From Candidatus Levybacteria bacterium RIFCSPHIGHO2_01_FULL_40_16 (GTDB lineage Bacteria; Patescibacteriota; Microgenomatia; Levybacterales; UBA12049): 53,788 nucleotides of DNA. Below, piece by piece: positions 3,183 to 48,064 of this stretch (the stretch's first letter is position 1; every line of letters begins with the position of its first letter). The translations under genes and the position numbers were made by a program. The notes under the pieces are model-generated. The model was not told where the DNA came from. It made no database searches and worked only from the letters and a program-made list of their open reading frames with translations. Where the stretch lies: positions 1 through 53,788 of the forward strand of contig MFNS01000002.1 of NCBI GenBank assembly GCA_001783805.1. Reading direction: 5' to 3'.

Positions 3183-5234
3183 TCAGGATGACAACGGAGA
3201 TTTGCCGACATCTTCTAATTTCCAAGCCGCAAATGTGCAGGCGGGGTAATTGGAACAGCCATAGAACTTGCGGCCTTTTTTGGTTTTTTTTATCACAATT
3301 TCCCCACCGTCTTTCGGACATTTCAAGCCTGTTTGCTCAACATAAGCTTTGGTAAATTTGCAATCGGGAAATCTAGAACAAGCAAAGAATTTGCCAAATT
3401 TTCCCGTTCTGATTATTAAATTTCCTTCACTACATTTAGGACATTTTTCGCCCGTTTCCTCAACTGCAATTTTTACTCTTTCCGCTCCTTCGACTTCGGT
3501 TAATTTTTTCTCAAACGGCGTGTAGAAATTACGCAAAACAAGTTCCCATTTTTTTTCTCCGATAGCAATATTATCAAGTTCATCTTCCATTGATGCGGTA
3601 AACGGAATATCGTCAATATATGAAAAATTTGTAACCAGGAAATCGCTGACGGCAATTCCGATTGCGGTCGGAGAAAATTTACCTTCTTGCCGTTCAATAT
3701 AGTTGCGGGCTTCAATGGTAGAGATAATCGTTGCGTAAGTTGAAGGCCTGCCAATTCCCTTTTCCTCTAATGTCTTGATAATCGATGCGTCATTGTATCT
3801 GGGCGGGGGCAAAGTTTCATGTTCTTTTTCCAAAACGTCGACAAGATCAAGCTTTTCACCGTTATTAAATTTGGGTAATTTATTATCAGACATTCCCAGC
3901 GGATTTACTTTCAAAAACCCGTCAAAAACAAGCACTGATCCGTTAGCTTTTAATTTATAAGAGCCTGCATCCACAAAAACCGTGGTTGACTCGACTACCG
4001 CGTCCGACATCTGCGATGCAACTGCCCGTCTCCAAATCAATTCGTATAATTTCCACCCCTGACTCCCAACTAAATTTGAAATTTGAAATTTGAAATTTGA
4101 AATTTCGCCGAAGGCAGTTGGTCTGATTGCTTCATGTGCTTCTTGGGCTAATTTTTGTTTGGCAGAATAAATTCTCGGTTGTAATGGCACATATTTGTCT
4201 CCATATTCTTTTTTAACGAAATTGATAATTGCAAACATCGCCGCCTGACCTATCGTTACGGAATCTGTTCTGTGATAAGTAATGTATCCTTCCTCATATA
4301 ATTTTTGCGCCAAACTCATGGTTCTTTTTCCATTGATATATAATTTATGCGCCGCATCCTGCTGAAGAGTTGAGGTTGTATATGGCGCTTGCGGGCTTCT
4401 GGTAGTGGCTTTCTGCAAAATATCTGCCACTGTAAATGTTTTCGTTTTTAAATCACCAACAATTCCTAAAGCTTTTTCTCCGGAGCCAATTGAAGTTTTA
4501 GTAACCTTATACTGCCCATCATACAGATCAAAAGTCTTCGCCACCTCAATCTTTTGGCCATCAATTTCTACCAGCTCGAATAATGTTTCCTCAGGTTTTG
4601 AGTTTTGAGTTTTGAGTTTTGAGTTCACCAGCGCCGCAGCGATGGTGTAGTATTTTTCTTTTCCAAACTTCTCAATTTCCCTTTCTCTTTCTACTATCAA
4701 ACGCAGGGCGACTGATTGAACGCGCCCCGCAGACAATCCCCTACGGACTTTTTTCCACAAAAGTGGAGAAAGTTTATAACCAACCAGCCTGTCTAAAACC
4801 CGGCGCGCGGTCTGCGCGTCAACCAAATTTTTATCTATGGTTCTGGGATTTTTTAGCGCCTCTTCAATTGCTTCTTTCGTTATTTCATGAAATACTATCC
4901 TATTGAATTTTTCATTTTTAACTTTTAATTTTTCATTTGAGCGGAGCATATCGGAGATATGCGAGGCGATCGCTTCTCCCTCCCTATCTGGGTCAGTAGC
5001 CAGAATAATTTGATCCGCTTTTTTTGCTTCAGTCTTAAGTTCGGCAATAATTTCCTCTTTATCCGCGACCATCTCGTATAAAGGCTTGAAGTTGTGCTCG
5101 AAATCTATGCCGATTTTGCTTTTAGGCAAATCCATAACGTGCCCCATTGAGGCTTTAATAACATAATCGCTGCCCAAAAACTTTCCAATTGTCCTAGCCT
5201 TTGTAGGACTTTCTACGATAACCAAACTTTTCAT
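3183..5234 (-). CDS. topA: DNA topoisomerase I (type IA) with C-terminal C4 zinc ribbons
   Basis: LVIVESPTKA, ATDPDREGEAI, SAGRVQS, GYITYHRTDS, AHEAIRPT and C-terminal CPKC/CSRFPDC repeats. Confidence 0.98.
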   Translation of the reverse strand: MKSLVIVESPTKARTIGKFLGSDYVIKASMGHVMDLPKSKIGIDFEHNFKPLYEMVADKEEIIAELKTEAKKADQIILATDPDREGEAIASHISDMLRSNEKLKVKNEKFNRIVFHEITKEAIEEALKNPRTIDKNLVDAQTARRVLDRLVGYKLSPLLWKKVRRGLSAGRVQSVALRLIVEREREIEKFGKEKYYTIAAALVNSKLKTQNSKPEETLFELVEIDGQKIEVAKTFDLYDGQYKVTKTSIGSGEKALGIVGDLKTKTFTVADILQKATTRSPQAPYTTSTLQQDAAHKLYINGKRTMSLAQKLYEEGYITYHRTDSVTIGQAAMFAIINFVKKEYGDKYVPLQPRIYSAKQKLAQEAHEAIRPTAFGEISNFKFQISNLVGSQGWKLYELIWRRAVASQMSDAVVESTTVFVDAGSYKLKANGSVLVFDGFLKVNPLGMSDNKLPKFNNGEKLDLVDVLEKEHETLPPPRYNDASIIKTLEEKGIGRPSTYATIISTIEARNYIERQEGKFSPTAIGIAVSDFLVTNFSYIDDIPFTASMEDELDNIAIGEKKWELVLRNFYTPFEKKLTEVEGAERVKIAVEETGEKCPKCSEGNLIIRTGKFGKFFACSRFPDCKFTKAYVEQTGLKCPKDGGEIVIKKTKKGRKFYGCSNYPACTFAAWKLEDVGKSPLSS

Positions 5235-6610: not shown

Positions 6611-6835
6611 TCATTTTCGGGATTCCAAAAGATGTTTAATCCCTTCTGAAAGTTTATCTAGTAGTCCATCTTGTTCTAAACCGTTTTCCGTTAGTTCGCC
6701 TGTTTGATTATGTACCTGAACATCTTGAGAATTATCGCACGATTCTATCTTTATAAAAGATGCAATTAAAGCACCTGTTAGAAAATATGGTATAATTTTG
6801 TTTCTGAAAAAATTTCCAACTTCTTTCCCATTCAT
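6611..6835 (-). CDS. Small hypothetical membrane protein
   Basis: 74 aa with a hydrophobic N-terminal segment; TATAAT lies 8 nt upstream of the ATG. Confidence 0.5.
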   Translation of the reverse strand: MNGKEVGNFFRNKIIPYFLTGALIASFIKIESCDNSQDVQVHNQTGELTENGLEQDGLLDKLSEGIKHLLESRK

Positions 6836-7724: not shown

Positions 7725-8759
7725 CTAGATACCATACATTCCCCCATCAATACTCTTGACCATCCCTTTTATTTCCATGAGAGAAAGAAGGCTGCTAAGT
7801 TGGGAGGATTTATATTTAGTTTTTCTAATTATTTCATCAAAATGCAACGCCTCATTTTCCAAAAGCTTTAAGATTATTAACTCATCTTTGGTTGCATTCT
7901 GAACTTTTGAATTTTGCTTGCCCGCTAGAGCCTTAGCGAAGGCGGGAGTTTTGAGTTCCTTAAAAATATCTTCAGCCGATGTCACTAATTTCGCTCCTTT
8001 CGAAATTAATTTATATGGACCTTTAGACATACTTGAAGTAATCGGTCCGGGTACTGCAAAAACCTTTCGATCAAATCTCAGGGCAAACTTTGCGGTAATT
8101 AAGGATCCGCTGTCTTCTGCACCTTCTGTTACCAATACCGCCTGGGATAAGCCGGCGATAATCCGGTTGCGAGCAGGAAATGTCCATTGAGTTGGCTTCA
8201 TTCCCAAGGGAAATTCCGAAACAATACAATTCCCTTTTTCAAGGATACTATTATACAAATTGAAATTCTCCATTGGAGAACAACAATCGACTCCGCACCC
8301 CAGAACAGCGATCGTTTTCCCTCCATTTTCCAAAGCAGTCAGGTGCGAAATCGCGTCAACTCCAAGAGCCAGACCCGAAACAATCGTAAATCCGTTCAAA
8401 ACCAATTCCGTAGTCAAAAGTTTCGTAACTTCCCTGCCATATTGCGTAGTTTTCCTCGCGCCCACAACAGCGATTGTTTTTGCAAACCAGGTATCGTCTG
8501 GTACCTGGCCGCGGCCATACAGAACAAACGGCGGATTTTTTATTTCTTTTAAAATTTGCGGGTAATCTTCATCCAACAAGGTAACGAACCAAACATCTTT
8601 TTCCTTAAGCTGTTTTAAATATTCTTCAATTGAGAAGTCTGACTTCTTAGCCCCCCAAGCAGCTTTTGCGGTTCCAAATTCCTTCAAAATCTTCCTAAAT
8701 TTCGCCGGCCCTATTCCGGGCAGTGCAGAAAATCCCAACCAATAATCCCGCTCGCTCAT
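7725..8759 (-). CDS. dprA: DNA-processing protein DprA (Smf)
   Basis: IAVVGARK, IVSGLALGVDA, FPARNRIIAGLS, EGAEDSGSLITA and a C-terminal winged helix. Confidence 0.97.
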   Translation of the reverse strand: MSERDYWLGFSALPGIGPAKFRKILKEFGTAKAAWGAKKSDFSIEEYLKQLKEKDVWFVTLLDEDYPQILKEIKNPPFVLYGRGQVPDDTWFAKTIAVVGARKTTQYGREVTKLLTTELVLNGFTIVSGLALGVDAISHLTALENGGKTIAVLGCGVDCCSPMENFNLYNSILEKGNCIVSEFPLGMKPTQWTFPARNRIIAGLSQAVLVTEGAEDSGSLITAKFALRFDRKVFAVPGPITSSMSKGPYKLISKGAKLVTSAEDIFKELKTPAFAKALAGKQNSKVQNATKDELIILKLLENEALHFDEIIRKTKYKSSQLSSLLSLMEIKGMVKSIDGGMYGI

Positions 8760-9075: not shown

Positions 9076-10806
9076 TCAGCGGGAAAACCACTCTTCCAAG
9101 ATTTTTTTCGCGATGGGGGCGGCAACGTTGGAGCCCTCTCCTGAAGCCTCCGACAAAACTGTCACGATAATTTCCGGTTTTTCTGCCGGGGCAAAAAGCG
9201 TGATCCAAGCATGTGGTAAAGTTTCTTCCCCACCATGTTGTGCAGTTCCCGTCTTGCACGCAATTTTTATTTCTTCCTCATCTTTGAGATTTGATTTTTG
9301 ATTTTTGATTTTAAAATTAAACAGCGGCCAGGCAACTCCTCCCGCAGCACATGATTCAACCATCCCCTCCTTAATCAGGTCAGACGTCTCCCTGCTTAGA
9401 AATTTTTCATTTTTAACTTTTAATTTTTCATTTTTCAGAAGGTGGGGCTTATAAATAACCCCTTCATTGGCAATCGCTTGGGTCCAAACATTGATTTGCA
9501 AGGGAGTTGTCAGCAAAAAACCCTGCCCGATTCCATAATGATAGGTATCTCCCAAATACCAATTCTCCCCGATTGTGCTTTTCTTCCATTCTCTTGTCGG
9601 GACTAGACCCTCTTGCTCACCCAGAAGATCAATCCCTATTTTTTTTCCCAAACCGAACTTTTCTGCGAAGCCAGCAAGCTTGTCAACTCCGACTAATTCA
9701 GCCAATTTGTAGAAAAAAATGTCATTTGATCTTTGAATAGCTTTTACCACATTTACTTCTCCATCCGTCCTTCCGTATTGGGTAAAGTACCAGTTGGAAA
9801 AAGAAAAAGAACCAATTCTTAAAATTCCCGTATCTTCTATAGTAAAATTCCGATCGATAACTTTATTCTCCAATCCTGCCGCAGCGACAATCAGCTTGAA
9901 GGTTGATCCCGGAGGATATGTCCCTCCAATTGCGCGGTTCAAGAGGGGCTGACCTTCTGAATCCGATAAGATTTGTGACACGGATTTATAAGGCGTCGTC
10001 TCCCCCACGGAATATCCTTCACCCATAGTAAAAAGGTTGGGATCAAAAGGCGGACTGGACAGAAGGGCTAAAATTTCACCCTTGGGACTGGACACAATTA
10101 TGGCTCCTTTTTTGATATCTTTGGCCGCGTCAAACGCGGCTTTTTGCAGTACAATGTCCAAGGTAAGCGTAACATTCTGTCCGGGTACTGGATCTGTAAA
10201 GCCTAGTTTCCGGACAACTTTACCCAGACTATTTATTTCAACCAGTTCTCTTCCATTAATTCCGGCGAGTTTAGCTTCGTATTCTCTTTCAATTCCGATT
10301 TTCCCAATCAAATCTCCGCCCCCGTAGAGGGCAAAATCTTTATTTTTTAATTCTTCCGGAGAAATTTGTCCGATATAACCCAAAACATGGGAAAAAATGT
10401 CTTCATACGGATATTGCCTCAAGACGTCAATCTCCAAATTATTTTCTCCTTCGGATAAAAGTTTTAACGCTTCATTTTCATCTATAAGTTTTGTTTTACC
10501 GTTTAACGTCTGCCTAAATCCTGGAACATTAAAAACCAAGGGTACTCCTGTTCTATCAAAGATAATTCCGCGGGGAGCATGGATGGGAATAGTTCTTGTT
10601 CTATTGCTATCCGAAAGATTTCGAAAACTTTCTCCTTTAATAATTTGCAGAAAAAAAAGTCTTGCAACAATTAAGGTTACTGCTATTATCAAAATTACGG
10701 GCAAGATGTAGCTTCTCACGGAATAGTTTTTGTCAAAATTTCCGGGATGTTTTTGGCTTTTTTCAAGTCTTATATAGTCTCCGAATGCAGGCCCAATTTT
10801 AACCAT
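9076..10806 (-). CDS. mrdA: Penicillin-binding protein 2
   Basis: APRGIIFDR, PGSTFK (SxxK), SND (SxN) and KTGT; located in the mre cluster. Confidence 0.95.
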   Translation of the reverse strand: MVKIGPAFGDYIRLEKSQKHPGNFDKNYSVRSYILPVILIIAVTLIVARLFFLQIIKGESFRNLSDSNRTRTIPIHAPRGIIFDRTGVPLVFNVPGFRQTLNGKTKLIDENEALKLLSEGENNLEIDVLRQYPYEDIFSHVLGYIGQISPEELKNKDFALYGGGDLIGKIGIEREYEAKLAGINGRELVEINSLGKVVRKLGFTDPVPGQNVTLTLDIVLQKAAFDAAKDIKKGAIIVSSPKGEILALLSSPPFDPNLFTMGEGYSVGETTPYKSVSQILSDSEGQPLLNRAIGGTYPPGSTFKLIVAAAGLENKVIDRNFTIEDTGILRIGSFSFSNWYFTQYGRTDGEVNVVKAIQRSNDIFFYKLAELVGVDKLAGFAEKFGLGKKIGIDLLGEQEGLVPTREWKKSTIGENWYLGDTYHYGIGQGFLLTTPLQINVWTQAIANEGVIYKPHLLKNEKLKVKNEKFLSRETSDLIKEGMVESCAAGGVAWPLFNFKIKNQKSNLKDEEEIKIACKTGTAQHGGEETLPHAWITLFAPAEKPEIIVTVLSEASGEGSNVAAPIAKKILEEWFSR

Positions 10807-13021: not shown

Positions 13022-13043
13022 ATTATTTCAATCCCCCAACGAC
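13022..13043. repeat. Direct repeat copy 2 (actual mreB 3' end, VVGGLK-stop)
   Basis: ATTATTTCAATCCCCCAACGAC. Confidence 0.9.
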
Positions 13044-14123
13044 TTTTACCCTTTGCAGGAGTGAATCGTTTTCCAGGACGCGCCCGGTTCCCCTGACAAC
13101 CGAGGTAAGGGGATCTTCGGAAAGAACAACCGGAATTTTAGTTCTCTCAACTATCAATTGATCAATCCCCGAAAGCATAGATCCTCCGCCGGTTAATAAA
13201 ATTCCATGGCTTAGAATATCATTGGTTAACTCGGGCGGAGCCTCCTGCAAAATATCCGAAATTCCCTCCATAATTTCAGCTAAAACCGGAGCCAAAGCTT
13301 CCCTGATCTCCACTTCTGTCAGGCGCAAGCTTTTCGGAAGTCCTGTTTCGATATCTCGTCCCCTGACGACTGCCATTTTCTCCTTTATTCCCTCATTTGA
13401 CTTTTCTCCTGAGCCTTCTGAACGGGCAACTTTTAACCTTGGTTGGAACGCGCTTCCTATTTTTATTTTTACATCTTCCGCAGTCTTCTCTCCCATTATC
13501 AAGCCGTGTCTCAGTCTGACATAATGAATAATCGCATTATCCATCTCCTGTCCAGCAACTTTTAAAGATTTACTTACCACAATGCCGCCCAAAGATATAA
13601 TTGCAATCTCCGTGGTTCCTCCGCCAATATCTACAACCATCATTCCGGTTGGAGCAAAAACCGAAACCTTTTCTCCGATTGCCGCGGCCATTGGTTCTTC
13701 GATCAAAAATGCTTCCCTGGCTCCCGCCGAAAGAGCTGCTTCCCAAACAGCACGGCGCTCAACTTCGGTAACAGAAGACGGAATACCGATGACAACTCTG
13801 GGGCGGGACCAGGCAACGGGAAGAACATTGCCAACTTCATGGACTACTTGAATATAGTAAGAGATCATTGCCAGGGTCGCATCAAAATCCGCAATCACCC
13901 CGCCCTTCAAAGGTGATACCGTGATAATTGACGGAGGAGTTTTTCCAACCATTCTTTTGGCCTCGGTCCCGATCGCAATGATTTTCTTGGTTTTTTTGTG
14001 CATTGCCACTACCGAAGGCTCTCTTATAACAATTCCCTTATCTTTTACCCAAATTAAAGTATTTGCAGTTCCGAGATCTATACCAATATCATGGGAAAAA
14101 TAAGAAAAAAATTTGCCAAACAT
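13023..14123 (-). CDS. mreB: Rod-shape determining actin homologue MreB
   Basis: DIGIDLGTANT, IEEPMAAAIG, VVDIGGGTTE and LLTGGGS. Confidence 0.98.
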   Translation of the reverse strand: MFGKFFSYFSHDIGIDLGTANTLIWVKDKGIVIREPSVVAMHKKTKKIIAIGTEAKRMVGKTPPSIITVSPLKGGVIADFDATLAMISYYIQVVHEVGNVLPVAWSRPRVVIGIPSSVTEVERRAVWEAALSAGAREAFLIEEPMAAAIGEKVSVFAPTGMMVVDIGGGTTEIAIISLGGIVVSKSLKVAGQEMDNAIIHYVRLRHGLIMGEKTAEDVKIKIGSAFQPRLKVARSEGSGEKSNEGIKEKMAVVRGRDIETGLPKSLRLTEVEIREALAPVLAEIMEGISDILQEAPPELTNDILSHGILLTGGGSMLSGIDQLIVERTKIPVVLSEDPLTSVVRGTGRVLENDSLLQRVKVVGGLK

Positions 14124-14131
14124 ATAGAGAA

Positions 14132-14240
14132 AATTTTCAATTTACAGTTTACAATTTTCAATAAATGATCCAATTATCAATGCTTGAAACATTGCGTGAT
14201 TGAAAATTTAATGAAAATTGCAAATTGGTAATTGCAAATT
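14132..14240. repeat. Intergenic palindromic element built from inverted heptamer arrays
   Basis: Left arm AATTTTC-AATTTAC-AGTTTAC-AATTTTC; right arm ...GAAAATTG-CAAATTG-GTAATTG-CAAATT. Related to 20042-20149. Confidence 0.75.
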
Positions 14241-14295
14241 GTTTTTATCATAGCATACTCTTGACAAGAAAATAAAATTATGTCACTCTAGATAC

Positions 14296-14850: not shown

Positions 14851-17202
14851 ATGAAATTCCTCAATCTTTGCAACCGGATTATCGAATATTCTTTCTATAC
14901 CCTTTTTCTTCTGGTTCCGCTTGCTTTTACGAGTGCTACTTCCGAGCTTTTTGAGTTGAATAAAATGTGGCTTGTCTGGGGACTAACTATTATTATTGGC
15001 GCGTCTTGGTTTATAAAAATGATTCTTCAAAAACGAATTCTGCTTTGCAGAACACCCCTGGATATTCCAATCGGTCTCTTTCTCCTTTCTCAAATCATCT
15101 CCACTATTTTCTCTCTGGATCCGCATGTTTCTTTGTGGGGTTATTATTCCCGCTTTAACGGCGGATTACTGTCCATAATTTCCTACATTTTGCTGTACTA
15201 TGCATTTTTAAGTAATTTCGATTCTCAAAAATTATCCGCTGTAGTCCGTAGACTATTGACCATAAGCTTAATATCCGGCCTGATTGTGGCGTTGTGGGGA
15301 CTTCCCTCTCATTTCGGCTACGACCCGACTTGCTTACTTTTTCGGGGCCAATTTAATGTTGCTTGCTGGACAGATGCTTTTCAGCCAAAAATCAGAATTT
15401 TCTCAACACTGGGACAGCCTGATTGGCTCGCCGCCTACCTGGCCATTCTAATACCAATTTCTATAGCAATGGCATTAAATAATTTACGAGCTCAAAATAA
15501 TCCTGATAATAAGTATCATGTATCAGGTGTCATGTATTATGTATCTAATAAAAAAATACTACATACTACCTACTACATACTACTTACTGCATTATTCTAC
15601 GTTGATCTCCTTTTCACTCGTGCGCGCTCCGGATTTTTGGGAATTTGGCTTTCTCTTATTTTTTTCGCCGCTTTATATTATCGGATCAGCGGCAAACCAA
15701 AATTATCCATATCAGCCGAAAATCTAAAATCTCCTATTGCCATTTTGATTTTTGGACTATTAATTATTACCTTCATCATCGGCACGCCGATTAACCAATT
15801 GAATAAGTTCACGCTTGCAGGAATCGGGAGCATTTTTCAGAAACCCGTAACTACTGAAACACAGGAAGATAAAGCACCCATTCAACCATCTGATTCCGGA
15901 GGGACAGAATCGGGAGACATAAGACTTTTAGTTTGGGAAGGCGCGTTAAGCACTTGGAGAGCAAATTTCCTCTTTGGCACAGGAGTGGAAACGTTTGCTT
16001 TTGCTTATTACAGGTACAAGCCCGTTGGCCAAAACCTAACCTCCGAATGGAACTTCCTATACAACAAAGCCCACAATGAGTTCCTTAACTATCTTGCGAC
16101 CACCGGCATTTTTGGATTAGGAACTTACCTACTCATGATCAGCTCTTTTTTCTTTGTAGGCTTTAAGAAGCTCAAAGCGCAAATGTCAAAACTCAAAGAT
16201 GAAACTCAAAACGAAAAGCTTTCAGCTTTAAGCTGTAATTTTGAGCTTTGCATTTTGAGCTTTGCACTACTGGCAAGCTACGTCTCCATCTTGATTACCA
16301 ATTTCTTTGGATTTTCCGTTGTCATGACAAATGTATATTTATTTATGCTTCCCGCTTTTGTCTTTGTTTTAAGCAATACGATTAAGACAGAAAGATCCGC
16401 GCAATCCGCCAACTCATCCGCGAAAATCTACAATAACGAATCTAACAATATGTATCAATGGACCGGTATTTTCTTTATAATTCTTGCTTCATTATTCATG
16501 ATTCTAAACTTAGTCCGTTTCTGGCAGGCAGATATTGCCTATGCTTTGGGCTATAATCTAGACCAGGCCAAAGAATATCAACAAGCCTATCCAAATTTAC
16601 ACAAAGCAGTAGAACTTCGGGGAAATGAGCCTGTTTTTAAAGACGAGCTTGCCATAAATGATGCAATTATTGCCGCAGGATTGGTCTCTCAAAAGCCTAT
16701 TGATTCAACTACAAAAGAACAAGCGGTCAGCGTTGCTTCTTCTTTGGCTCAAGAAGCAATTAACACTAGCAATGAAGTCGTTTCTCAACACCCAAACAAT
16801 GTAGTCTTTTGGAAGACCAGGGTCAGGCTTTTTCTTACTCTTGCTCAAGTTGATTCCCGATATTTGCCGCGTACTCTGGATGCGGTTGAAAAAGCTTCTC
16901 TTCTTGCTCCTAACGATGCAATTATTTGGTATAATCTCGGTGTTTTATACGGACAGAATAATAATCTTGAGAAGGGAATTTCGGCTCTGGAAAAAACAAT
17001 TAAGCTCAAGCCCGATTACAGGGATGCGCGTTTTGGATTAGGCATTTTTTATCATACTGCTTCCCTGGATAAAGACAGAAAGGTAGTTGTGGATCAGACT
17101 CTAAATCAAAAAGCAATCGCCCAAATGCAATATATTTTGGATAATCTATCTCCGAAGGATGCAGATGCCCTAAAATCCATTGAGGATTGGGCCAAACTCT
17201 AA
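14851..17202 (+). CDS. O-antigen-ligase/O-oligosaccharyltransferase-like membrane protein with C-terminal TPR
   Basis: Multiple TM helices, STLGQPDWLA, FTRARSG, GTGVETF, KAHNEFLNYLATTGIFG and TPR-like WYNLGVLY...ARFGLG. Confidence 0.85.
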   Translation: MKFLNLCNRIIEYSFYTLFLLVPLAFTSATSELFELNKMWLVWGLTIIIGASWFIKMILQKRILLCRTPLDIPIGLFLLSQIISTIFSLDPHVSLWGYYSRFNGGLLSIISYILLYYAFLSNFDSQKLSAVVRRLLTISLISGLIVALWGLPSHFGYDPTCLLFRGQFNVACWTDAFQPKIRIFSTLGQPDWLAAYLAILIPISIAMALNNLRAQNNPDNKYHVSGVMYYVSNKKILHTTYYILLTALFYVDLLFTRARSGFLGIWLSLIFFAALYYRISGKPKLSISAENLKSPIAILIFGLLIITFIIGTPINQLNKFTLAGIGSIFQKPVTTETQEDKAPIQPSDSGGTESGDIRLLVWEGALSTWRANFLFGTGVETFAFAYYRYKPVGQNLTSEWNFLYNKAHNEFLNYLATTGIFGLGTYLLMISSFFFVGFKKLKAQMSKLKDETQNEKLSALSCNFELCILSFALLASYVSILITNFFGFSVVMTNVYLFMLPAFVFVLSNTIKTERSAQSANSSAKIYNNESNNMYQWTGIFFIILASLFMILNLVRFWQADIAYALGYNLDQAKEYQQAYPNLHKAVELRGNEPVFKDELAINDAIIAAGLVSQKPIDSTTKEQAVSVASSLAQEAINTSNEVVSQHPNNVVFWKTRVRLFLTLAQVDSRYLPRTLDAVEKASLLAPNDAIIWYNLGVLYGQNNNLEKGISALEKTIKLKPDYRDARFGLGIFYHTASLDKDRKVVVDQTLNQKAIAQMQYILDNLSPKDADALKSIEDWAKL

Positions 17203-17796: not shown

Positions 17797-18641
17797 TGAA
17801 AATTGTTTTCTTTGGCTCATCATCTTATGTCATTCCAATTCTTAGATTTTTAGTCAAAAACTTTGATTTAAAATTAGTCTTAACTACGGAAAAATCCGGA
17901 GGCGCGGTTCCGACCTTTTGCAAACAAAATAAGATTGAATTTTTATCCGTTCCCAATCTTTCCGACTCAAATCTTAAATCCTTAATCTTAAATCTTAAGT
18001 CTCCAATCGCCGTCTTGGCTGACTTTGGCTTAATAATTCCTCCTGAAATTCTTAATTTGTTTCCCAAAGGAATAATTAATCTCCATCCTTCGCTTTTGCC
18101 GAAATACCGGGGTCCGACTCCGGTTCAAAATGCGATTTTAAATGGAGATAAAATTACTGGTATCAGCATTATTAAACTTGATGAAGAAATAGATCATGGG
18201 CCAATCCTGGGACAAGAAAAAGAGCAGATTTTGGACACCGATACTGCCGAATCGTTATATAAAAGGCTGTTTGCAAAAGGAGCAAATTTATTACCCAAAA
18301 TATTGAATAAATACCTAGAAGAAAGCCTTAAGTTAATCGCCCAAAATCACGAAAACGCCACTTTTACCAAATCTTTGAAACGCGAAACCGGTTTTATCGA
18401 TACATCAAAAATTAAAGATCAAAAATCAAAAATTAAGTTAGAAAGGAAAATTCGCGCATACTTCCCCTGGCCAGGCGTCTGGACCCGCCTTCGCCTAGGC
18501 TATGGCGGGCAAGCAAAATTAAAAATTATTAAGTTTTTACCTTTTGGAAAACTTCAGGTTGAGGGGAAAAAACCGGTCAGTTACAAAGATTTTCTCAACG
18601 GCTACCCCGACGCTAAAAGCGTAATACTACCAATACTATAA
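17796..18641 (+). CDS. fmt: Methionyl-tRNA formyltransferase
   Basis: MKIVFFGS, INLHPSLLPKYRG, DHGPI and PWPG; directly follows def. Confidence 0.95.
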   Translation: MKIVFFGSSSYVIPILRFLVKNFDLKLVLTTEKSGGAVPTFCKQNKIEFLSVPNLSDSNLKSLILNLKSPIAVLADFGLIIPPEILNLFPKGIINLHPSLLPKYRGPTPVQNAILNGDKITGISIIKLDEEIDHGPILGQEKEQILDTDTAESLYKRLFAKGANLLPKILNKYLEESLKLIAQNHENATFTKSLKRETGFIDTSKIKDQKSKIKLERKIRAYFPWPGVWTRLRLGYGGQAKLKIIKFLPFGKLQVEGKKPVSYKDFLNGYPDAKSVILPIL

Positions 18642-20041: not shown

Positions 20042-20149
20042 AATTTTCAATTTGAAATTTAAAATTTTAAATCAAATCTAAATGTTTTAATTTTAAAAAT
20101 TTAAAATATTGAAAATTCAATGAAAATTAAAAATTGAAAATTTAAAATT
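20042..20149. repeat. Intergenic palindromic heptamer element (second copy of the 14132 family)
   Basis: Shares AATTTTCAATTT (12/12) and ATTGAAAATTyAATGAAAATT (20/21) with 14132-14240. Confidence 0.75.
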
Positions 20150-22711: not shown

Positions 22712-22949
22712 GCCTCCCTAGCTCAATGGCAGAGCGTATGTTTTGTCCCAGTAAAATCTTGTCAATTCTGGTAAAATTGACTTAGATTTACGGGATCCCG
22801 TAAAATCGGCTTGCCGAGATGGCTCAGTGGTAGAGCAGCTGTTTTGTAAACAGCAGGTCCCGGGTTCGAATCCCGGTCTCGGCTCACAAGACAAGCTCGA
22901 TTTTTACTGGGATAAACATATGACAACAGTTCGATTCTGTTGGGAGGCT
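22712..22949 (+). tRNA. Split/interrupted tRNA-Thr(UGU): exons about 22712-22746 and 22914-22949 with a 167-nt insert
   Basis: Acceptor GCCTCCC/GGGAGGC, D stem GCTC/GAGC, anticodon stem TATGT/ACATA and T stem AACAG/CTGTT with loop TTCGATT. The joined anticodon loop is TT-TGT-AA. Confidence 0.7.
22813..22884 (+). tRNA. tRNA-Thr(UGU), intact, nested in the insert of the outer tRNA
   Basis: GCCGAGA/TCTCGGC, GCTC/GAGC, GCTGT-TTTGTAA-ACAGC and CCGGG-TTCGAAT-CCCGG. Confidence 0.96.
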
Positions 22950-22970
22950 CAGGCAATATAATCAAATCCT

Positions 22971-23054
22971 GCTGGGTTCGCATAGCGGCAATTGCATGTG
23001 GCTGTAGACCACACGGTCGCAAGGCCTACGGGGGTTCGAGTCCCTCACCCAGCA
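22971..23054 (+). tRNA. tRNA-Tyr(GUA)
   Basis: GCTGGGT/ACCCAGC, TGTGG-CTGTAGA-CCACA, a long variable arm and T loop TTCGAGT. Confidence 0.96.
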
Positions 23055-23177
23055 CCCAATTCATTTGCGCTTATCAACAAACTAAGATAACGCAAAATCG
23101 TTGGCTCTGGAGTTCCGATTTTGCGAAACCCTAGGGGGAAAATCGTTGGGAAAAAACCGTAGGTTTTGTTCCATTTG

Positions 23178-23249
23178 GCCGACATAGTTTAGTGGTAAAA
23201 CGACTCATTGGTAATGAGTTGAGTGTGGGTCCGATTCCCACTGTCGGCT
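23178..23249 (+). tRNA. tRNA-Thr(GGU)
   Basis: GCCGACA/TGTCGGC, ACTCA-TTGGTAA-TGAGT; T loop is TCCGATT (C55). Confidence 0.92.
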
Positions 23250-23305
23250 CACAACGACCCGCCGTCGCTAAAAGCTTTGGCGGGCGCAGGAAGGAGGAAA
23301 ATATT

Positions 23306-23482
23306 ATGGCGAGTAAAGGTGAACAACGGGTTAAAATCGCACTTATTTGCACTGTTTGTAAAAACAGAAATTATATCACAACCCGCAACAAAGTTAATAC
23401 GCCGGAGAAGGTGAAGTTGAAAAAATATTGCAAACATTGCAAAAAAGTCAACGAACACAAAGAAACGGAGAAAATGAAATAA
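23306..23482 (+). CDS. rpmG: 50S ribosomal protein L33 (zinc-binding type)
   Basis: [14 protein letters not shown]...[15 protein letters not shown]; SD AAGGAGG upstream of the ATG at 23306. Confidence 0.96.
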
Positions 23483-23508
23483 CTTTGATATAATTAAACT
23501 GTCTCATT

Positions 23509-23579
23509 AGGGCTATGGTGAAATGGTATCACGGCAGTCTCCAAAACTGCTTTTCCAGGTTCGAGTCCTGGTGGCCCTG
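23509..23579 (+). tRNA. tRNA-Trp(CCA)
   Basis: AGGGCTA/TGGCCCT, GCAGT-CTCCAAA-ACTGC and CCAGG-TTCGAGT-CCTGG. Confidence 0.95.
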
Positions 23580-24347: not shown

Positions 24348-25681
24348 TTTGTTCCTTTTGCGTAAAACCAGGTGGGGCCGGCATCTTTATTAAAGATAAA
24401 CAAAGGCCGGATTTTTTTCTTCTTCACCCATTCGCTAACCGCCTTTTTAACTCCGTTGGGCTGCCCGGACAATTCGTTATTATAATTATAGCCCGCTATA
24501 ATCCCGCCTTTGCGCACTTTTTTTGACCACTCCTTAATATTATCTCCTGTACTTTTATAGTCAGCCCCTGCGTCAATAAAAACAAAATCCAGTGAATTAT
24601 CGGCAAACTTTTTAGCTGCATTTGCCGATGTATCCCTGATAATTTTACAATTAAATGACTCAAGTCTCGCTTTGGCTCTATTATACAGGTCGTCGTTAGA
24701 TTCCCATGCATCAATTGCAAATAATTTTAGATTGGGATTCATAGCGCAGAGGAATTTAGCATACTTGCCTGCTCCAACCCCTATTTCAGCACCCAGATTA
24801 AACCCCAATTCCCTGAATAATACCGACAAGCTGCCCTCTCTGCTGCGATACAGCTTATGCCGCGACTGATTTTTCTTTAATTGATATTTATTTAAGATAT
24901 ACTTTGACGTCGTCATATTATCCACTACATTATATGCTTCCGACTTATGTTTTTCAAACCATTCATATCGGTTGCCCCTTGTTTTGTCGGGAAGCTGATG
25001 CTTCTTATTCTTCCACCGCATTATAGCAAAGGTAGTGGGGAGAGGAACGCCAATGAAATAACGTGAGAAATTTTTTGTATCTCTGTCTTCAAGATATTTT
25101 CTTCCGAAATAGCGATAATGCAACATTTTTACCCCTATCTCTTCTCCTTTTTTGAATGAAGTATTTCCTTGCAGTTCTGCAATACTATGGCAGCCATTTC
25201 TAAAACGTATATAAATTGCAGGATCAAATAAAACACACTGGGTTGCCCAATAATCAGGGAGTCCATTTTTTACTTCATCATAAATCTGCCCGGTGGTGGT
25301 TGGTAATGTTTCAGAAAACATTGTGAATCCCTGAGGTTGTATCAGCTGTGTCCCAAGTTTTTTCTCGCGTTTTAATACTTCCATTAAATTAGGGTGATAA
25401 AGAAACTCATCCGCGTCAACCAATACCACCCAATCAGCTTTACCGCGGCTAAGTTCCTCATACTTCGTCCACAATTTACTAATCCAATATCCCTCATTTA
25501 ATCCATGTTCTTTTAAATCAAAGATTGTAACTTTTGGATGCTGACTTAATATCTTTCTGCTATTATCCGGACTTTCATCGTAAAAAGCATATATGTTTTG
25601 GGCAAAACTTCCATAATGCTTCAGGAAATAAGGCAAAAGAAATTCCTCATTGTAAACCATGACATAAACATCAATTTTCAT
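24344..25681 (-). CDS. GT2-like glycosyltransferase fused to a class I methyltransferase domain
   Basis: N-terminal VMVYNEEFLL...VDADEFL; C-terminal AEIGVGAG...LDFVFID...KVRKGG. Confidence 0.82.
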   Translation of the reverse strand: MKIDVYVMVYNEEFLLPYFLKHYGSFAQNIYAFYDESPDNSRKILSQHPKVTIFDLKEHGLNEGYWISKLWTKYEELSRGKADWVVLVDADEFLYHPNLMEVLKREKKLGTQLIQPQGFTMFSETLPTTTGQIYDEVKNGLPDYWATQCVLFDPAIYIRFRNGCHSIAELQGNTSFKKGEEIGVKMLHYRYFGRKYLEDRDTKNFSRYFIGVPLPTTFAIMRWKNKKHQLPDKTRGNRYEWFEKHKSEAYNVVDNMTTSKYILNKYQLKKNQSRHKLYRSREGSLSVLFRELGFNLGAEIGVGAGKYAKFLCAMNPNLKLFAIDAWESNDDLYNRAKARLESFNCKIIRDTSANAAKKFADNSLDFVFIDAGADYKSTGDNIKEWSKKVRKGGIIAGYNYNNELSGQPNGVKKAVSEWVKKKKIRPLFIFNKDAGPTWFYAKGTK

Positions 25682-25682
25682 A

Positions 25683-26336
25683 TCAGGTTTTTACATAAAA
25701 CCAACTTCTGCAATTAACCTTAGTCAAGACAAATAAAGGGTTTATATTATTTGCTTTTACCCAGTCATTTACTGCCGCTTTAACATCATAGATTTCCTTG
25801 TAATAATCTTTTTTTCCATCGAAATTAGGGTCCATATAATCATGCCCGCCAATAATTCCACCCATCCTAACCTTTTTTGACCATTCTTTAATATCGTTAT
25901 AAACATTTTTGTAATCGTGAGCAGCATCGATGTAGACAAAATCCAGACTCTCATCGGCAAATCTTTTTACCGCATTCATTGACCAATCCCTAATAATTTG
26001 GCAGTTCAGGCCGGTAAGATTTCCTCTGGCTATTTCATATAATTTATCCATATCTTTTTGAGTTTTATCTTTAGTGCACCCTCCGAATAATTCCCAGGCA
26101 TCTACGGAGTATAGCTTGAAATTAGGACAGTAATGGCACAGGTGCCTTGAAAAATAGCCTGATGCTACGCCAATTTCAGCCCCGACTTTAAAATTTAAAT
26201 TATTTATTAACCTTGGAAAAGCACCTTCGCGGCTTCGCACAACTTCAATCGGAGACTTTGCAGCTTTATTCAGCACCGAATCGGTGCTGGATTTATCTAT
26301 TCTAAATCTTCCGTAAATATATTCTAATGTGTCCAT
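25683..26336 (-). CDS. Class I SAM methyltransferase (Methyltransf_24-like)
   Basis: GAEIGVASG, LDFVYIDAAHDY and GGIIGGHDY. Confidence 0.88.
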   Translation of the reverse strand: MDTLEYIYGRFRIDKSSTDSVLNKAAKSPIEVVRSREGAFPRLINNLNFKVGAEIGVASGYFSRHLCHYCPNFKLYSVDAWELFGGCTKDKTQKDMDKLYEIARGNLTGLNCQIIRDWSMNAVKRFADESLDFVYIDAAHDYKNVYNDIKEWSKKVRMGGIIGGHDYMDPNFDGKKDYYKEIYDVKAAVNDWVKANNINPLFVLTKVNCRSWFYVKT

Positions 26337-26340
26337 ATCA

Positions 26341-27489
26341 TCATTTTACATACATCCAGGTTGGACGAGAATCTTTATTAAGGATAAGCAAAGGCCGGAT
26401 TTTTTTCTTTTTTACCCATCCGTCAACCGCTCTTTTGACTTCATTGGGTTTTCCGGACAATTCGCTAGTATAATTATATCCGGCTACAATTCCGCCTTTG
26501 CGCACTTTTTTTGACCATTCCCAGATATTGTTTTTTATACTCTTATAGTCATTAATTTCATCCAGAAAAACAAAATCCAGTGAATTATCGGCAAACTTTT
26601 TAACCGTATTCATTGACGTATCTCTAATAATTTGACAGGTAAACGGCTCAAGCCTTATTTTGGCCTTGTTATATAGTCCATCGTTAGATTCCCATGTGTC
26701 AATGGCAAATAATTTAAGCTTGATACTAATAGAACAAAGGGTTTTAGAAAATCTGCCTGTTCCGACCCCAACTTGAGCACCCTGATTAAATTCCAATTCC
26801 TTAAACACCTTTAACAAACTGACCTCCCTACTGCGACATAGCTCATACCGAGATTTGCCTCTCTTTAATTTGAATCTGTTTTCAATATGCCTTAGAGTAT
26901 TCATCCTCACAGCCCTCTCTTCAATTCCGGCCTTTCTATTTTCATATCTTCTAATTGCATCCTCCACTGAAGAAGCTTGAATGACTTTTGGATTTTTATT
27001 CCAATGCCAGTTCAATTTTCTTTCTCTCCAATTGTCTCTATAGATATTTTTTAGATATTCTTCGTATTTATGAGGAACAGGAACTTTACGACCCTCAAAT
27101 TCAATATAGCTGTAGGGAAATATGATATCCTTATCAAGCACATAATAGCAGTCTCGCCAAATATTTAATACTACATATTTACCTCTCGTAATAATAAATA
27201 CAATATCCGTTCTATATGCGTCTCCATCCCTATAAAAACCTATGCTGCCAAATCCTGAAGCGGCCCGTTTATCAAAAAAATAGTATTTTAAAGGATTTTT
27301 TAAAATTTTTTCTCTATATTCAGCCTGGACAAACATATCTATCTCCGAATCATCATCAAAAGGTTTTCTCTGAAGAAGAAATGCCATCAGGGTACTTCCT
27401 CCCAAAAAATACGGAATTTTTAATTTATCCAATTGGTCCATTGACCCGAATATAAAGTTTTCCATTAAAGTTGCTTTTGCAGATGTCAT
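26341..27489 (-). CDS. LicD-like nucleotidyltransferase fused to a methyltransferase-like domain
   Basis: YFLGGSTL...DDDSEID, FEGRKVPVP...YL..IY; C-terminal GAQVGVGTG...LDFVFLD. Confidence 0.78.
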   Translation of the reverse strand: MTSAKATLMENFIFGSMDQLDKLKIPYFLGGSTLMAFLLQRKPFDDDSEIDMFVQAEYREKILKNPLKYYFFDKRAASGFGSIGFYRDGDAYRTDIVFIITRGKYVVLNIWRDCYYVLDKDIIFPYSYIEFEGRKVPVPHKYEEYLKNIYRDNWRERKLNWHWNKNPKVIQASSVEDAIRRYENRKAGIEERAVRMNTLRHIENRFKLKRGKSRYELCRSREVSLLKVFKELEFNQGAQVGVGTGRFSKTLCSISIKLKLFAIDTWESNDGLYNKAKIRLEPFTCQIIRDTSMNTVKKFADNSLDFVFLDEINDYKSIKNNIWEWSKKVRKGGIVAGYNYTSELSGKPNEVKRAVDGWVKKKKIRPLLILNKDSRPTWMYVK

Positions 27490-32588: not shown

Positions 32589-33203
32589 TTATTCTTTTAC
32601 GTATAGCCAGCTGGGCATTTCGGTATTTGCATTTTTATTCAAAATAAATAGATAGGGAATTTTGTTTTCCGCAACCCATTCGTTAACTGCCCGTTTGACG
32701 CCAAAAGGTATTCCGGCATGCTCATTGACATAATCGTGCCCTGATACAACTCCACCCTTTTTAACCTTCTTAGACCATTCCCTGATGTCCTCTTTCACAT
32801 ATCCGTAGCTGTGATTGGCATCTATGTAGATAAAATCCAGTGATTCATCCGCAAACCGCTTAACCGCTTTCATTGACCATTCATTAACTATCTGCACATT
32901 ATAAGGCGCCAGCAATTTCCTGGCGTACGCATAAATATCATCCATGACTTTCTGCTCAGTTTCTTCCGTATCAATATATCCGTCGTACACTTTCCAGACA
33001 TCAATTCCGTACAATTTAAGATTGGGAACTCTCTGGCACAAAATCTGAGCAAATCTACCCTTAGCTACACCGACTTCGGCTCCGAGCGTAAATCCCAAAT
33101 TTGCAAATATTCTGGGTAGGGTTATTCCTCTTGTGCCATCAATTTTGACCAATCCTTTTTCTTTTATCCTATATTTTCTTAAAATATGATCCAATGCGTT
33201 CAT
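32589..33203 (-). CDS. Class I SAM methyltransferase (Methyltransf_24-like)
   Basis: GAEVGVAKG, DFIYIDANHSY and GGVVSGHDY. Confidence 0.88.
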   Translation of the reverse strand: MNALDHILRKYRIKEKGLVKIDGTRGITLPRIFANLGFTLGAEVGVAKGRFAQILCQRVPNLKLYGIDVWKVYDGYIDTEETEQKVMDDIYAYARKLLAPYNVQIVNEWSMKAVKRFADESLDFIYIDANHSYGYVKEDIREWSKKVKKGGVVSGHDYVNEHAGIPFGVKRAVNEWVAENKIPYLFILNKNANTEMPSWLYVKE

Positions 33204-33811
33204 TCTTTTATAAAAAACCAGCTGGGATGGTGCTCCTTATTGAAAATAAAAAGATATTTTATTTCGTGTTTTTCTACCCATTCGTCAACAGCTTTGACAA
33301 CGCCATCATTTCCTGAATTAAAAACAAAATAATCATCTCCGGCAACAATTCCATCCTTTCTTACTTTTTTTGACCACTCGGCAATATCTTCTTTGACAAA
33401 CTCATAACCATGGTTAGCATCGATATAAACAAAATCCAATGAATCATCCTTAAATTTTTTCACAGCATCCATTGAATAATCTCTGATAATCTCGCAATTG
33501 AAAGGCGCAAGTCTGGTTTTAGCTTCTTCATAATATCTATTTTGTCGATTAGTAGATTTACCAAATTTACCATTACCGGGAAATTTATAAGGCGCCCAGG
33601 CATCAACAGCATAGAGTTTGAGATTTTGTACCTTACCGCATAATCGTTTTGAGAAATATCCCTTTTCTACCCCAATTTCAGCTCCAATCGTAAAATTCAA
33701 TGCCTGAAATAACTTTGGTAAGGATACCCATCGGCTGCGTCTAAGATATATTGGTGATTTTTCCGCACCTGTTAATTTATATCTTTTAAAAATGTGATCT
33801 AATGCACTCAT
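33200..33811 (-). CDS. Class I SAM methyltransferase (Methyltransf_24-like)
   Basis: GAEIGVEKG, DFVYIDANHGY and GIVAGDDY. Confidence 0.88.
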   Translation of the reverse strand: MSALDHIFKRYKLTGAEKSPIYLRRSRWVSLPKLFQALNFTIGAEIGVEKGYFSKRLCGKVQNLKLYAVDAWAPYKFPGNGKFGKSTNRQNRYYEEAKTRLAPFNCEIIRDYSMDAVKKFKDDSLDFVYIDANHGYEFVKEDIAEWSKKVRKDGIVAGDDYFVFNSGNDGVVKAVDEWVEKHEIKYLFIFNKEHHPSWFFIKE

Positions 33812-45836: not shown

Positions 45837-46538
45837 ATGATCACTGTACATACGGTAGCTTATAATGAAAGCTTACTTATCCAGTTCATGATCGATCATT
45901 ACCGTAAGAGATTTCCGGGCTGTCGGATTATCGTGTACGATAATATGAGCACTGATAATACCGTTAAAATCGCTCTGGCCAATAATTGCGACGTTATCCC
46001 CTTTGATACGAACAATGAATTTCAAGACCGCCGGCATATGGAAATCAAAAATAATTGCTGGAAAGATGCAAAAACCGATTGGGTTTTAATGTGCGATCTG
46101 GATGAGTTGCTGGATATAAATGAAGTTGAGTTAAAAACGGAAGAAGGTTTCGGAACGTCAATGATCAGATGCGAGTTTTACGACATGATTAATATGGAAG
46201 ATAATTTGGATATTGCCGGCATGAAGTATGGGGAAAAAAGCCCACTACCTGGTAAGTTTTTGCTTTTTAACAAAAAGTTAATCAACGAAATAAATTACAC
46301 GCCAGGCGCTCACGGATGTAATCCAATGGGCACTGTTATATACAGCAACAAAGTATACAAGGCATATCATTACAATGCCATAAATGAGAATGTAACAATT
46401 GAGAAATTTAAGGACTACAGTGCGAGATTAAGTCCGGACAATATCAAGCATGGTTGGAGCCTTTTTGTTTTGTCTACGCCCGAACAAATCCGTGAGGAAT
46501 ATGTTGCCGGACGAAGCAAAGCAATAAAAGTACGCTGA
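45837..46538 (+). CDS. GT2-like glycosyltransferase
   Basis: VAYNE, YDNMSTD and MCDLDE; related to the N-terminal domain of 24344-25681. Confidence 0.8.
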   Translation: MITVHTVAYNESLLIQFMIDHYRKRFPGCRIIVYDNMSTDNTVKIALANNCDVIPFDTNNEFQDRRHMEIKNNCWKDAKTDWVLMCDLDELLDINEVELKTEEGFGTSMIRCEFYDMINMEDNLDIAGMKYGEKSPLPGKFLLFNKKLINEINYTPGAHGCNPMGTVIYSNKVYKAYHYNAINENVTIEKFKDYSARLSPDNIKHGWSLFVLSTPEQIREEYVAGRSKAIKVR

Positions 46539-47122
46539 TGAAAATTTTAATCGGAACACCAATTCACCAAGTTAAGGATTATTCCATGGAAAGGTGGCTT
46601 AAAAATGTCGCCAGACTCCAGAAGAAAACTCCGGCTGATTTATTTTTAATTGATAACTCCTCCGGACTTGACTATGTAGAAACAGTTAAGGGTTATTGCC
46701 AGAAATACGGCGTCAAAAATTACAAAATAAAACATTTGAATCTCGATCAAAAATTAAGCTCCGGCAGACGGATAAATATAGCGCAGGAAGCATTAAGACG
46801 AATAGCTATCGGCAAAGATTATGACGCTTGGTTTTCTTGGGAATGCGATCAAATCATACCAACCAATGCCCTGGATAAACTTATCAAGATAATGAAGTTA
46901 GGAAATTTCATGATGGTTGTACATAATTCTTGGGACAGGAAAATTCCCGCTGTCTTTAATTTCGATATGGGCTGCACCTTAATCACAAAAAAGTGCTTAA
47001 AATTAAAAAGAATTACCGACCTCTGGACAGAGGACTGGTTGGAGACACAAACTTTACAAAATGGAGGCAGTTTTGCCAATGTTCATGGAGCAATATGTCC
47101 GATTTATCATTTAAGAAAATAG
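46538..47122 (+). CDS. GT-A-like glycosyltransferase, KILIGTP family, copy 1
   Basis: MKILIGTPIH..KDY, DNS, SWECD and PIYHL. Confidence 0.7.
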   Translation: MKILIGTPIHQVKDYSMERWLKNVARLQKKTPADLFLIDNSSGLDYVETVKGYCQKYGVKNYKIKHLNLDQKLSSGRRINIAQEALRRIAIGKDYDAWFSWECDQIIPTNALDKLIKIMKLGNFMMVVHNSWDRKIPAVFNFDMGCTLITKKCLKLKRITDLWTEDWLETQTLQNGGSFANVHGAICPIYHLRK

Positions 47123-47125
47123 CCT

Positions 47126-47926: not shown

Positions 47927-48064
47927 TCAATCTTTTGACTGTATATTTTTGATTGCTTGACTATCGCCAACTTTATGCTTAAAATTACTTACAAAATTAA
48001 TGTCGCTAATTTATCCAAAACATCATCATGTCCGCGGCGGACGTGAATTTGCTAATATAGAGAT

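Follow-up and report, generated by a model that had tools for sequence, protein, structure and literature searches.

Heptamer-array hairpins carried in frame within an O-antigen-ligase-like gene of a Levybacteria genome

Two imperfect hairpins, built of inverted arrays of 7-nt units, lie in frame within an intact gene for an O-antigen-ligase-like membrane protein in the 53,788-nt stretch of DNA analyzed here (hereafter the window; contig MFNS01000002.1 of Candidatus Levybacteria bacterium RIFCSPHIGHO2_01_FULL_40_16). We consider it moderately probable that these hairpins, element A (15510-15592, ~83 nt) and element B (16167-16268, ~102 nt), are cassettes derived from simple sequence repeats (SSRs), passengers filtered by translation and the coding-region members of a Levybacteria-wide class of heptamer arrays. 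They are an instance of repetitive DNA making new protein sequence, rather than of a function special to the host gene.

The host gene (14851-17202, + strand) encodes a polytopic membrane protein of 783 aa, with an O-antigen-ligase-like Wzy_C domain at residues 246-426 and tetratricopeptide (TPR) repeats at its C-terminal end. Its named relatives belong to Candidatus Levybacteria, Microgenomates or Patescibacteria, and the gene order mreB (on the - strand), small open reading frame (ORF), host gene, def, fmt is kept in the five relatives fetched. The ORF is intact, the flanks of both elements are conserved, and a single Logan contig from an independent sequencing run (X1) covers 14851-17202 with zero differences. 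Both elements, being in frame and reproduced by an independent assembly, are real. An earlier note on this DNA had described complete heptamer hairpins inside this gene, and its sequence, coordinates and peptides stand, save that the start it gave for element A (15512) is one base off, the K codon beginning at 15511.

In element A, paired arms of 38 nt each (15510-15547 and 15549-15586) are 71% complementary and separated by a 1-nt gap. The left arm (15510-15547, +) is an array of GTATCAT-type heptamers (4.7 copies at 15513-15545 by Tandem Repeats Finder, TRF) encoding NKYHVSGVMYYVS, and the right arm (15549-15592, +) is an ATACTAC-type array (5.3 copies at 15556-15592) encoding KKILHTTYYILLTA. 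Element B has paired arms of 45 nt each (16176-16220 and 16224-16268), likewise 71% complementary. Its left arm (16167-16220, +), which encodes KLKAQMSKLKDETQNEK, consists of CTCAAAG/GTCAAAA-type units with a weak 7-nt periodicity (xxCAAAx), and its right arm (16224-16268, +), which encodes LSALSCNFELCILSFAL, comprises two exact copies of ATTTTGAGCTTTGC (16238-16265) together with AGCTTTA units. TRF copy numbers were 4.7, 5.3 and 7.0 at period 7 and 2.1 at period 14, and the arrays of both elements are imperfect, with 64-83% matches. Predicted tryptic peptides from the element-encoded segments include YHVSGVMYYVSNK and LKDETQNEK.

In RNA folding, both elements do better than expected when compared with 200 dinucleotide shuffles of each. 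For element A the z-score was -2.8 on the + strand and -3.9 on the - strand, with no shuffle as good on either (0/200), and for element B it was -2.1 on the + strand (5/200 shuffles as good) and -4.5 on the - strand (0/200). The ungapped inverted-repeat scores, 11.0 for A and 12.5 for B, may be compared with those of shuffled orthologue site sequences, which scored at least 11 in 0.7% and at least 12 in 0.1% of cases.

In the AlphaFold model of the protein (predicted template modelling score 0.84), which contains helices at residues 190-213, 233-256, 410-453 and 457-485, the left arm of A (aa 220-232) corresponds to a low-confidence loop between the first two of these (predicted local distance difference test score <50 at 223-231), and the right arm to the start of helix 233-256. 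The left arm of B extends helix 410-453 out of the membrane, and its right arm provides the start of helix 457-485. The hydropathy profile concurs with the model on arm placement in both elements: the A-rich arm supplies a hydrophilic loop, and the T-rich arm the opening turns of the membrane helix that follows. The model thus bears out the claim that the elements sit at junctions between transmembrane helices, with the hydrophobic right-arm peptide running into the next helix. The loops of A and B are probably cytoplasmic, as suggested by their K/N-rich composition and by counting back, helix by helix, from the large conserved loop at aa 311-410. A structure search of the model against the PDB was dominated by matches to the TPR domain and was uninformative for the membrane part.

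The imperfection of the arms is tied to the reading frame. Were the right arm an exact complement of the left, it would contain an in-frame stop codon in A and in B alike; were the left arm of A an exact complement of its right arm, it would contain two. Every frame of a heptamer array is read, and the need to keep the ORF open explains why the arms are complementary at 5 of 7 positions. A palindrome with an A-rich 5' arm, moreover, reads A-rich and then T-rich on either strand and always encodes a hydrophilic stretch followed by a hydrophobic one, so that a whole hairpin fits only before a membrane helix, as is the case at both sites. ORF integrity and stop avoidance together suggest that the elements are translated throughout.

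About 200 orthologues (120 database homologues and 81 translated loci) were compared, in which the loop at site A ranges from 9 to 66 aa and that at site B from 25 to 69 aa. On this sequence comparison, both sites are insertion hot spots and not ancestral protein sequence. The earlier note had proposed to check whether the elements are lineage-specific insertions, and named alignable sequence in distant orthologues as what would refute its reading. Formally this is the case, and the segments are not lineage-specific: at these same positions, cassettes that can be aligned are present in orthologues of 47-72% identity (for A in L060, L012, P0009 and P0012; for B in P0008, P0019 and L046). Many orthologues do lack the elements, in keeping with insertion, but the distribution is patchy, with cassette replacement rather than a single insertion event. 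Hairpins are concentrated in the longer loops (32/86 vs 9/86), and at least eight recurring cassette families occupy the two sites: the A type (KYYVSSIK..IHNTYYILL), the B type (..KTQMSKLK..NFELCILSFAL), and families recognized by KQYQNSNDKNSKRFE..NLFRVSNFGF, ISKSEFLISNQ..LGQLEIRSIRNL, KITNSFANFANKLANVREK, ILNLFQDL..MLKLVQHD, NWKLW and ..AQNDK. Site B holds an A-type cassette in 14 orthologues, and a motif search places such cassettes at both sites in three (P0025, P0063 and P0080); one cassette is likewise present at both sites in L007/P0069.

Cassette carriers do not form a clade: identity between carriers can fall to 52%, while outside the sites it can reach 95% between a carrier and a non-carrier, and the 15 nearest relatives of the window gene show at least seven different cassette combinations. 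Loci L083 and L175 match at 100% identity across most of the gene; the exceptions are a ~370-nt patch spanning site A, in which they hold different cassettes, and the 3' end. This mosaic points to allelic recombination. Such short patches between near-identical alleles indicate, as far as sequence comparison can tell, that allelic recombination is frequent among co-occurring Levybacteria. A precise swap of cassettes between P0009 and P0015 was rejected, as it proved to be a recombination patch of ~370 nt. One comparison (L035 vs L023) revealed a clean, in-frame, hairpin-bearing insertion of 102 nt at site B, with no obvious target duplication in its flanks. As a separate observation, the window gene and the 98%-identical P0001 differ by a similar mosaic patch at aa ~106-135.

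Cassettes shared between orthologues are conserved at the DNA level. Identity at third codon positions is 0.85-0.91 for B and 0.81-0.85 for A, as compared with 0.51-0.53 gene-wide, and reaches 1.0 in local windows inside element B. Part of this synonymous-site conservation could be explained by homogenisation, because an array read in all three frames would have no truly silent positions. In the orthologous locus L085 both arms have changed in concert, from GTATCAT/..ATAC.. to GAATCAT/..ATTC.. in element A and from CTCAAA/TTTGAG to ATCAAA/TTTGAT in the units of element B, with complementarity preserved in each. Cognate arms match better than non-cognate ones (11.5 vs 5.3), a comparison that is partly circular since the set was pre-selected for hairpins. 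Orthologous cassettes differ in their number of units, and hairpin potential is kept in most copies; element A of L083 lacks a significant hairpin on both strands.

The antisense strand folds better than the sense strand in 4/4 genomes for element B and in 3/4 for element A. In agreement with this, 40 translated site hairpins from 86 loci contain 81 A.C and 38 G.T mismatches on the sense strand, so that the antisense strand would form more wobble pairs. A minimum of the cumulative GC skew, observed near ~42 kb of the window, may correspond to a replication origin. In that case the lagging strand of 1-42 kb would be the + strand, and its template would be the minus strand, on which A and B fold better.

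Elements A and B belong to a far larger population of heptamer arrays. In 754 kb of Levybacteria loci we counted 210, 84 and 15 arrays with periods of 7, 14 and 21, respectively, as compared with 22, 8 and 0 in Markov shuffles of the same sequence (309 vs 30 in total). The 210 period-7 arrays comprise 111 distinct units, and adjacent arrays are preferentially complementary (in 27/44 pairs at least 5 of the 7 positions match). On a greedy ORF map, 201/309 arrays (65%) lie fully inside ORFs, including those of topA, a PBP2-like gene, fmt and mreB; per base, arrays are still ~4-fold enriched in spacers. The peptides encoded by A-rich arrays have a mean hydropathy of -1.46, and those encoded by T-rich arrays of +1.75. 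Intergenic arrays favour divergent, promoter-side spacers (42 vs 29.7 expected) over convergent ones (6 vs 17.3), with the caveat that the loci are not independent. A role in transcription termination was rejected, since intergenic arrays are depleted in convergent spacers and the elements have no U-tracts.

Within the window, topA carries two perfect single-arm arrays in frame, (AAATTTG)x4.9 at 4072-4105 (- strand; ISNFKFQISN) and (GTTTTGA)x4.4 at 4595-4625 (- strand; NSKLKTQNSK), the complement of the latter being 85% like the left arm of element B. A third array in topA, 33 nt long (4906-4938, - strand; NEKLKVKNEKF), is identical to one in the PBP2-like gene (9401-9433, - strand), where it encodes KNEKLKVKNEKF; both are in frame, and their common sequence is AATTTTTCATTTTTAACTTTTAATTTTTCATTT. 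Further in-frame arrays occur in the PBP2-like gene ((TTTGATT)x3.3 at 9290-9312, - strand; KIKNQKS), in a SpoU-like methyltransferase gene (perfect (AGATTTG)x4.7 at 1137-1169, - strand; ISNLKSQISN) and in fmt (AATCTTA-type at 17970-17998, + strand, NLKSLILNLKS; ATCAAAA-type at 18404-18433, + strand, SKIKDQKSK). Of the intergenic arrays, AATTTAC and AAATTGC units in the divergent spacer between mreB and the next gene (14131-14241) form a long hairpin with z-scores of -4.9 and -5.4, and an AATTTAA-type region of period 7 at 20049-20149 has weak hairpin potential (z = -1.4).

The 30-nt core of AATTTTTCATTTTTAACTTTTAATTTTTCATTT occurs exactly in seven genomes (Patescibacteria, Levybacteria, two Fibrobacter, Bacteroidia, Epsilonproteobacteria and, within GC-rich flanks, Oscillospiraceae), usually with a complementary arm downstream, and lies in frame in a Levybacteria MreB. 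The A-arm pattern, GTATYATGTATCARGTRTYATG, was found in 83 stretches from many classes of the candidate phyla radiation (CPR), Bacteroidota, Omnitrophota and Roseiflexaceae, with at least 17 in one Bacteroidota metagenome-assembled genome; 76/84 matches lie outside long ORFs, and in 34/84 a partner arm is present across a loop of 3-69 nt. The right arm of element B recurs in frame (FELCALSFAL) in a different membrane protein, and no occurrence of the centre of B was found outside orthologues of the host gene. Simple arrays in the source metagenomes have a contig depth 75 to 2000x that of the gene, with heterogeneous flanks: over the topA arrays at 4072-4105 and 4595-4625, at each of which Logan contigs end, summed contig depth is 450-2000x that of the gene in runs X1 and X3.

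Two side observations concern these sequences. MreB (window 13023-14123; loci L081-L085 and L181) varies from 358 to 377 aa among close relatives, with a variable loop after ..GSA(F/Y)Q.. that holds the cassette KNEKLKVKNEK in L181 and PRLKVARSEGSGEKSNEGIKEK in the window. In addition, a GTATYAT-type hairpin lies in the same conserved non-coding stretch of three CPR genomes (L093 ~4480-4620, L124 ~2560-2700 and L126 ~6680-6820), flanked as ..cgtggtaccacc..[hairpin]..gctatgacgggc..; this stretch, which has no Rfam match at the gathering threshold, looks like a structured RNA.

Under the explanation that we favour, we infer that arrays would grow and homogenise through slipped-strand mispairing, that inverted arrays would stay complementary by intrastrand template switching or selection on the hairpin, and that recombination would exchange and spread cassettes between alleles. 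Translation would act as a filter, not as a purpose: arrays must be stop-free in all three frames, which forces imperfect complementarity of the arms, and a whole hairpin would be tolerated only just upstream of a membrane helix, soluble proteins keeping only the A-rich arm. The net effect would be a longer, probably cytoplasmic loop and an extended membrane helix in an otherwise conserved protein, the added peptides being passengers.

Several results weigh against this explanation. Third-codon identity within cassettes (0.81-0.91, gene-wide 0.51-0.53) exceeds the expectation for a neutral passenger and would call for nucleotide-level selection, recent exchange, or the argument that the array has no silent positions. 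Exact array sequences of 22-30 nt recur in distant phyla, a pattern that slippage acting only locally would hardly produce and that hints at some active process with sequence specificity. Neither copy-number polymorphism nor indels appeared in eight run-by-region comparisons (4+4 runs), although Logan contigs drop rare variants. The antisense strand consistently folds better, with A.C exceeding G.T on the sense strand, and the proposed filter presupposes a translation that is itself deduced from the open frame. Because of the synonymous-site conservation, the antisense folding bias and the exact cross-phylum recurrence of arrays, something more specific, either a functional hairpin or a dedicated mobilising process, may be involved.

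It is rather unlikely, by comparison, that the elements are discrete selfish mobile units, akin to Rickettsia palindromic elements (RPEs) or MITEs (miniature inverted-repeat transposable elements), pasted by a trans-acting enzyme into permissive in-frame sites. Such mobility would account for the same cassette family at both sites of one gene (L007/P0069; P0025, P0063, P0080), the clean 102-nt insertion in L035 relative to L023, the identical 33-nt array in topA and the PBP2-like gene with its 30-nt core in several phyla, the scatter of the A-arm pattern across phyla, and the high metagenome depth and heterogeneous flanks of the arrays. However, neither A nor B has a second copy in the window at up to 3 mismatches, blastn matches of both to 86 related loci were confined to orthologous sites, and the centre of B was found in orthologues only. 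The dispersed A-type hairpins vary in loop length and arm copy number, with a partner arm in fewer than half of the matches (34/84); the units number 111; the arms are repeat arrays rather than fixed termini; and the L083/L175 swap is a recombination tract of ~370 nt rather than a precise excision followed by insertion. Terminal inverted repeats, a target-site duplication or a linked enzyme were not identified, within the limits of the 53.8-kb window and with no insertion-sequence search made. B does not behave as a discrete mobile element, and what disperses is the arm-forming arrays. The analogy to RPEs drawn in the earlier note is sound for the effect on the protein and not for family membership, the arms being SSR arrays with no discrete multi-copy consensus unit demonstrated.

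Quite unlikely, too, is a functional hairpin, that is, a structure in mRNA or antisense RNA, or in single-stranded DNA of the lagging-strand template, kept for regulation, pausing or replication-related roles. The synonymous-site conservation of shared cassettes, the compensatory changes in their arms, the folding potential retained in most orthologous copies, the strand asymmetry favouring G-U pairs on the antisense strand, and the enrichment of intergenic arrays in divergent and their depletion in convergent spacers (non-independent loci) would all be expected of it. Set against these are the many orthologues with short loops and no hairpin, the unrelated cassettes that swap at the same site among close relatives, the absence of a significant fold in element A of L083, and the absence of an Rfam family: a scan of the window and three loci matched only tRNAs and the end of 16S rRNA.

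We regard as similarly improbable a dedicated, sequence-specific DNA process, shared across phyla, that makes or targets heptamer-array hairpins; candidates for it could be an uncharacterised enzyme that acts on hairpins in single-stranded DNA, or the templated addition of repeats. If true, one process would be writing the same 22-33-nt arrays into genomes from CPR to Bacteroidota, Fibrobacter and Firmicutes, and in CPR ORFs it would repeatedly create and replace the loop-plus-helix segments of membrane proteins and loops at the surface of housekeeping enzymes.

Selection at the protein level, whether for adaptive loop and helix extensions or for a phase-variable contingency locus driven by 7-nt slippage, is very unlikely. 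The peptides of carriers are similar, and a one-unit change would shift the frame, 7 not being a multiple of 3; but selection on peptides would not lead one to expect palindromic DNA symmetry, the loops are probably cytoplasmic and not surface-exposed, the imperfection of the arrays (64-83% matches) suppresses slippage, similar arrays occur in the essential genes topA, fmt and mreB, and the eight run-by-region comparisons held no indel variants. Phase variation of A and B was itself rejected, the arrays being imperfect and without length variants in Logan contigs. The chance that we are dealing with random low-complexity sequence or an assembly artefact is negligible: the genome is AT-rich (GC ~0.39) and repeats break Logan contigs elsewhere in the window, but the shuffle tests exclude it, an independent contig is identical over the whole gene, and independently assembled orthologues hold the same cassettes.

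In-frame palindromic repeats are best known from Rickettsia, where RPEs, reportedly described by Ogata and colleagues in 2000, fall into discrete families, each with a consensus that can be recognised, a length of about 100-150 bp and many copies in a genome. They are mentioned in PMC1458961 and PMC10969869. Like RPEs, A (~83 nt) and B (~102 nt) are hairpin-forming repeats of ~100 nt, in frame in a conserved gene whose protein is kept, adding peptide at permissive positions and patchy among orthologues. Unlike RPEs, they have arms that are heptamer arrays of at least 111 unit types, with variable loops; A and B each occur once in the window and the centre of B was seen in orthologues alone, while other cassettes and the arm arrays recur in other genes. 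The taxon also differs (Levybacteria-like CPR), and the likeness drawn here is one of effect.

Cyanobacterial short tandemly repeated repetitive (STRR) sequences are heptameric simple-sequence repeats, and in substance the class described here is closest to them and to the inverted heptamer pairs of Xanthomonas and Nostoc. The latter are GGGAATC in Xanthomonas and GGGGA(C/T)T in Nostoc (PMC4692102), and according to two papers, heptamers are the most abundant long simple sequence repeats of prokaryotes, attributed to polymerase slippage (PMC4679880 citing Mrazek 2007; PMC4692102). All share tandem 7-nt units in few copies (three or more in the period-7 arrays of the present elements), dispersed over the genome and often in convergent arrays able to form stem-loops, with an excess of period 7. 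The Xanthomonas and Nostoc repeats are, however, mainly intergenic and under-represented on coding strands, whereas here ORFs contain 65% of the arrays, and entire hairpins are probably translated; and the Levybacteria units are AT-rich and very diverse, whereas repeats of the Xanthomonas/Nostoc type have a single motif. Direct repeats of the heptamer TAACTGA, for which there is no known transfer mechanism, occur in Beggiatoaceae, Cyanobacteria and Bacteroidetes, and resemble the present arrays in that the same heptamer array is found in distant phyla and in that three-frame reading and stop codons limit their placement (PMC4679880). In their forward orientation they contain stops, and they lie as direct repeats mostly just upstream of start codons; the present arrays, in contrast, are stop-free, within genes and often paired into hairpins.

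Repetitive extragenic palindromic sequences and bacterial interspersed mosaic elements (REP/BIME), as well as MITEs and palindrome-associated transposable elements (PATEs), are also small palindromic dispersed repeats, but they are largely extragenic, whereas the arrays studied here are mostly inside ORFs. Neither a conserved head motif nor an associated RAYT/IS200-type enzyme was seen in the 53.8-kb window. The mitochondrial translational-bypass elements (byps), which Lang and colleagues are said to have reported in 2014, resemble A and B in being short insertions that form hairpins within protein-coding genes. The ribosome skips byps, which break the frame, whereas here the frame is kept and stops are avoided, which argues for read-through translation. 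Bypass translation was rejected for A and B, which have no stop or frame shift and whose arms depart from complementarity exactly where stops would arise.

In the literature searched (heptamer, palindromic, MITE and RPE topics in CPR), no description of a heptamer-hairpin class in Patescibacteria was found. The elements reach an RPE-like outcome in a CPR phylum from different raw material, heptamer-array hairpins, and housekeeping genes are hit as well as a membrane protein. A simple rule emerges for whole hairpins that can be translated, namely that an A-rich/T-rich palindrome fits only before a membrane helix, and the turnover of cassettes is visible among near-identical alleles. The class bears on the question of why 7-nt repeats, sometimes identical in sequence, recur across bacterial phyla. 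It also affects the annotation of CPR proteins, through variable low-complexity inserts and contigs that break at arrays, as well as the alignment of CPR marker genes and phylogeny.

The window holds other repeats and features. A second, unrelated translated repeat, a GC-rich palindromic element of 42 nt, occurs at 7905-7946 and 18484-18525 in opposite orientations, 88% complementary between its copies and in frame in both a DprA-like gene (..TPAFAKALAGKQNSK..) and fmt (..RLRLGYGGQAKLK..). Long tandem repeats with units of 24, 48, 72 and up to 156 nt occupy the 3' part (52530-53788) of the last ORF (51918-53788), which runs off the window; the encoded protein repeats with a period of 8 aa. A 16S rRNA gene has its 5' end at the window start (1-93, - strand), and four clustered tRNA genes lie at 22813-23579 (+ strand). 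In the glycosyltransferase-like part of the window, clusters of diverged paralogues (24353-26640, 32729-33497 and 46537-51365) appear as direct repeats of 75-300 nt at 65-79% identity.

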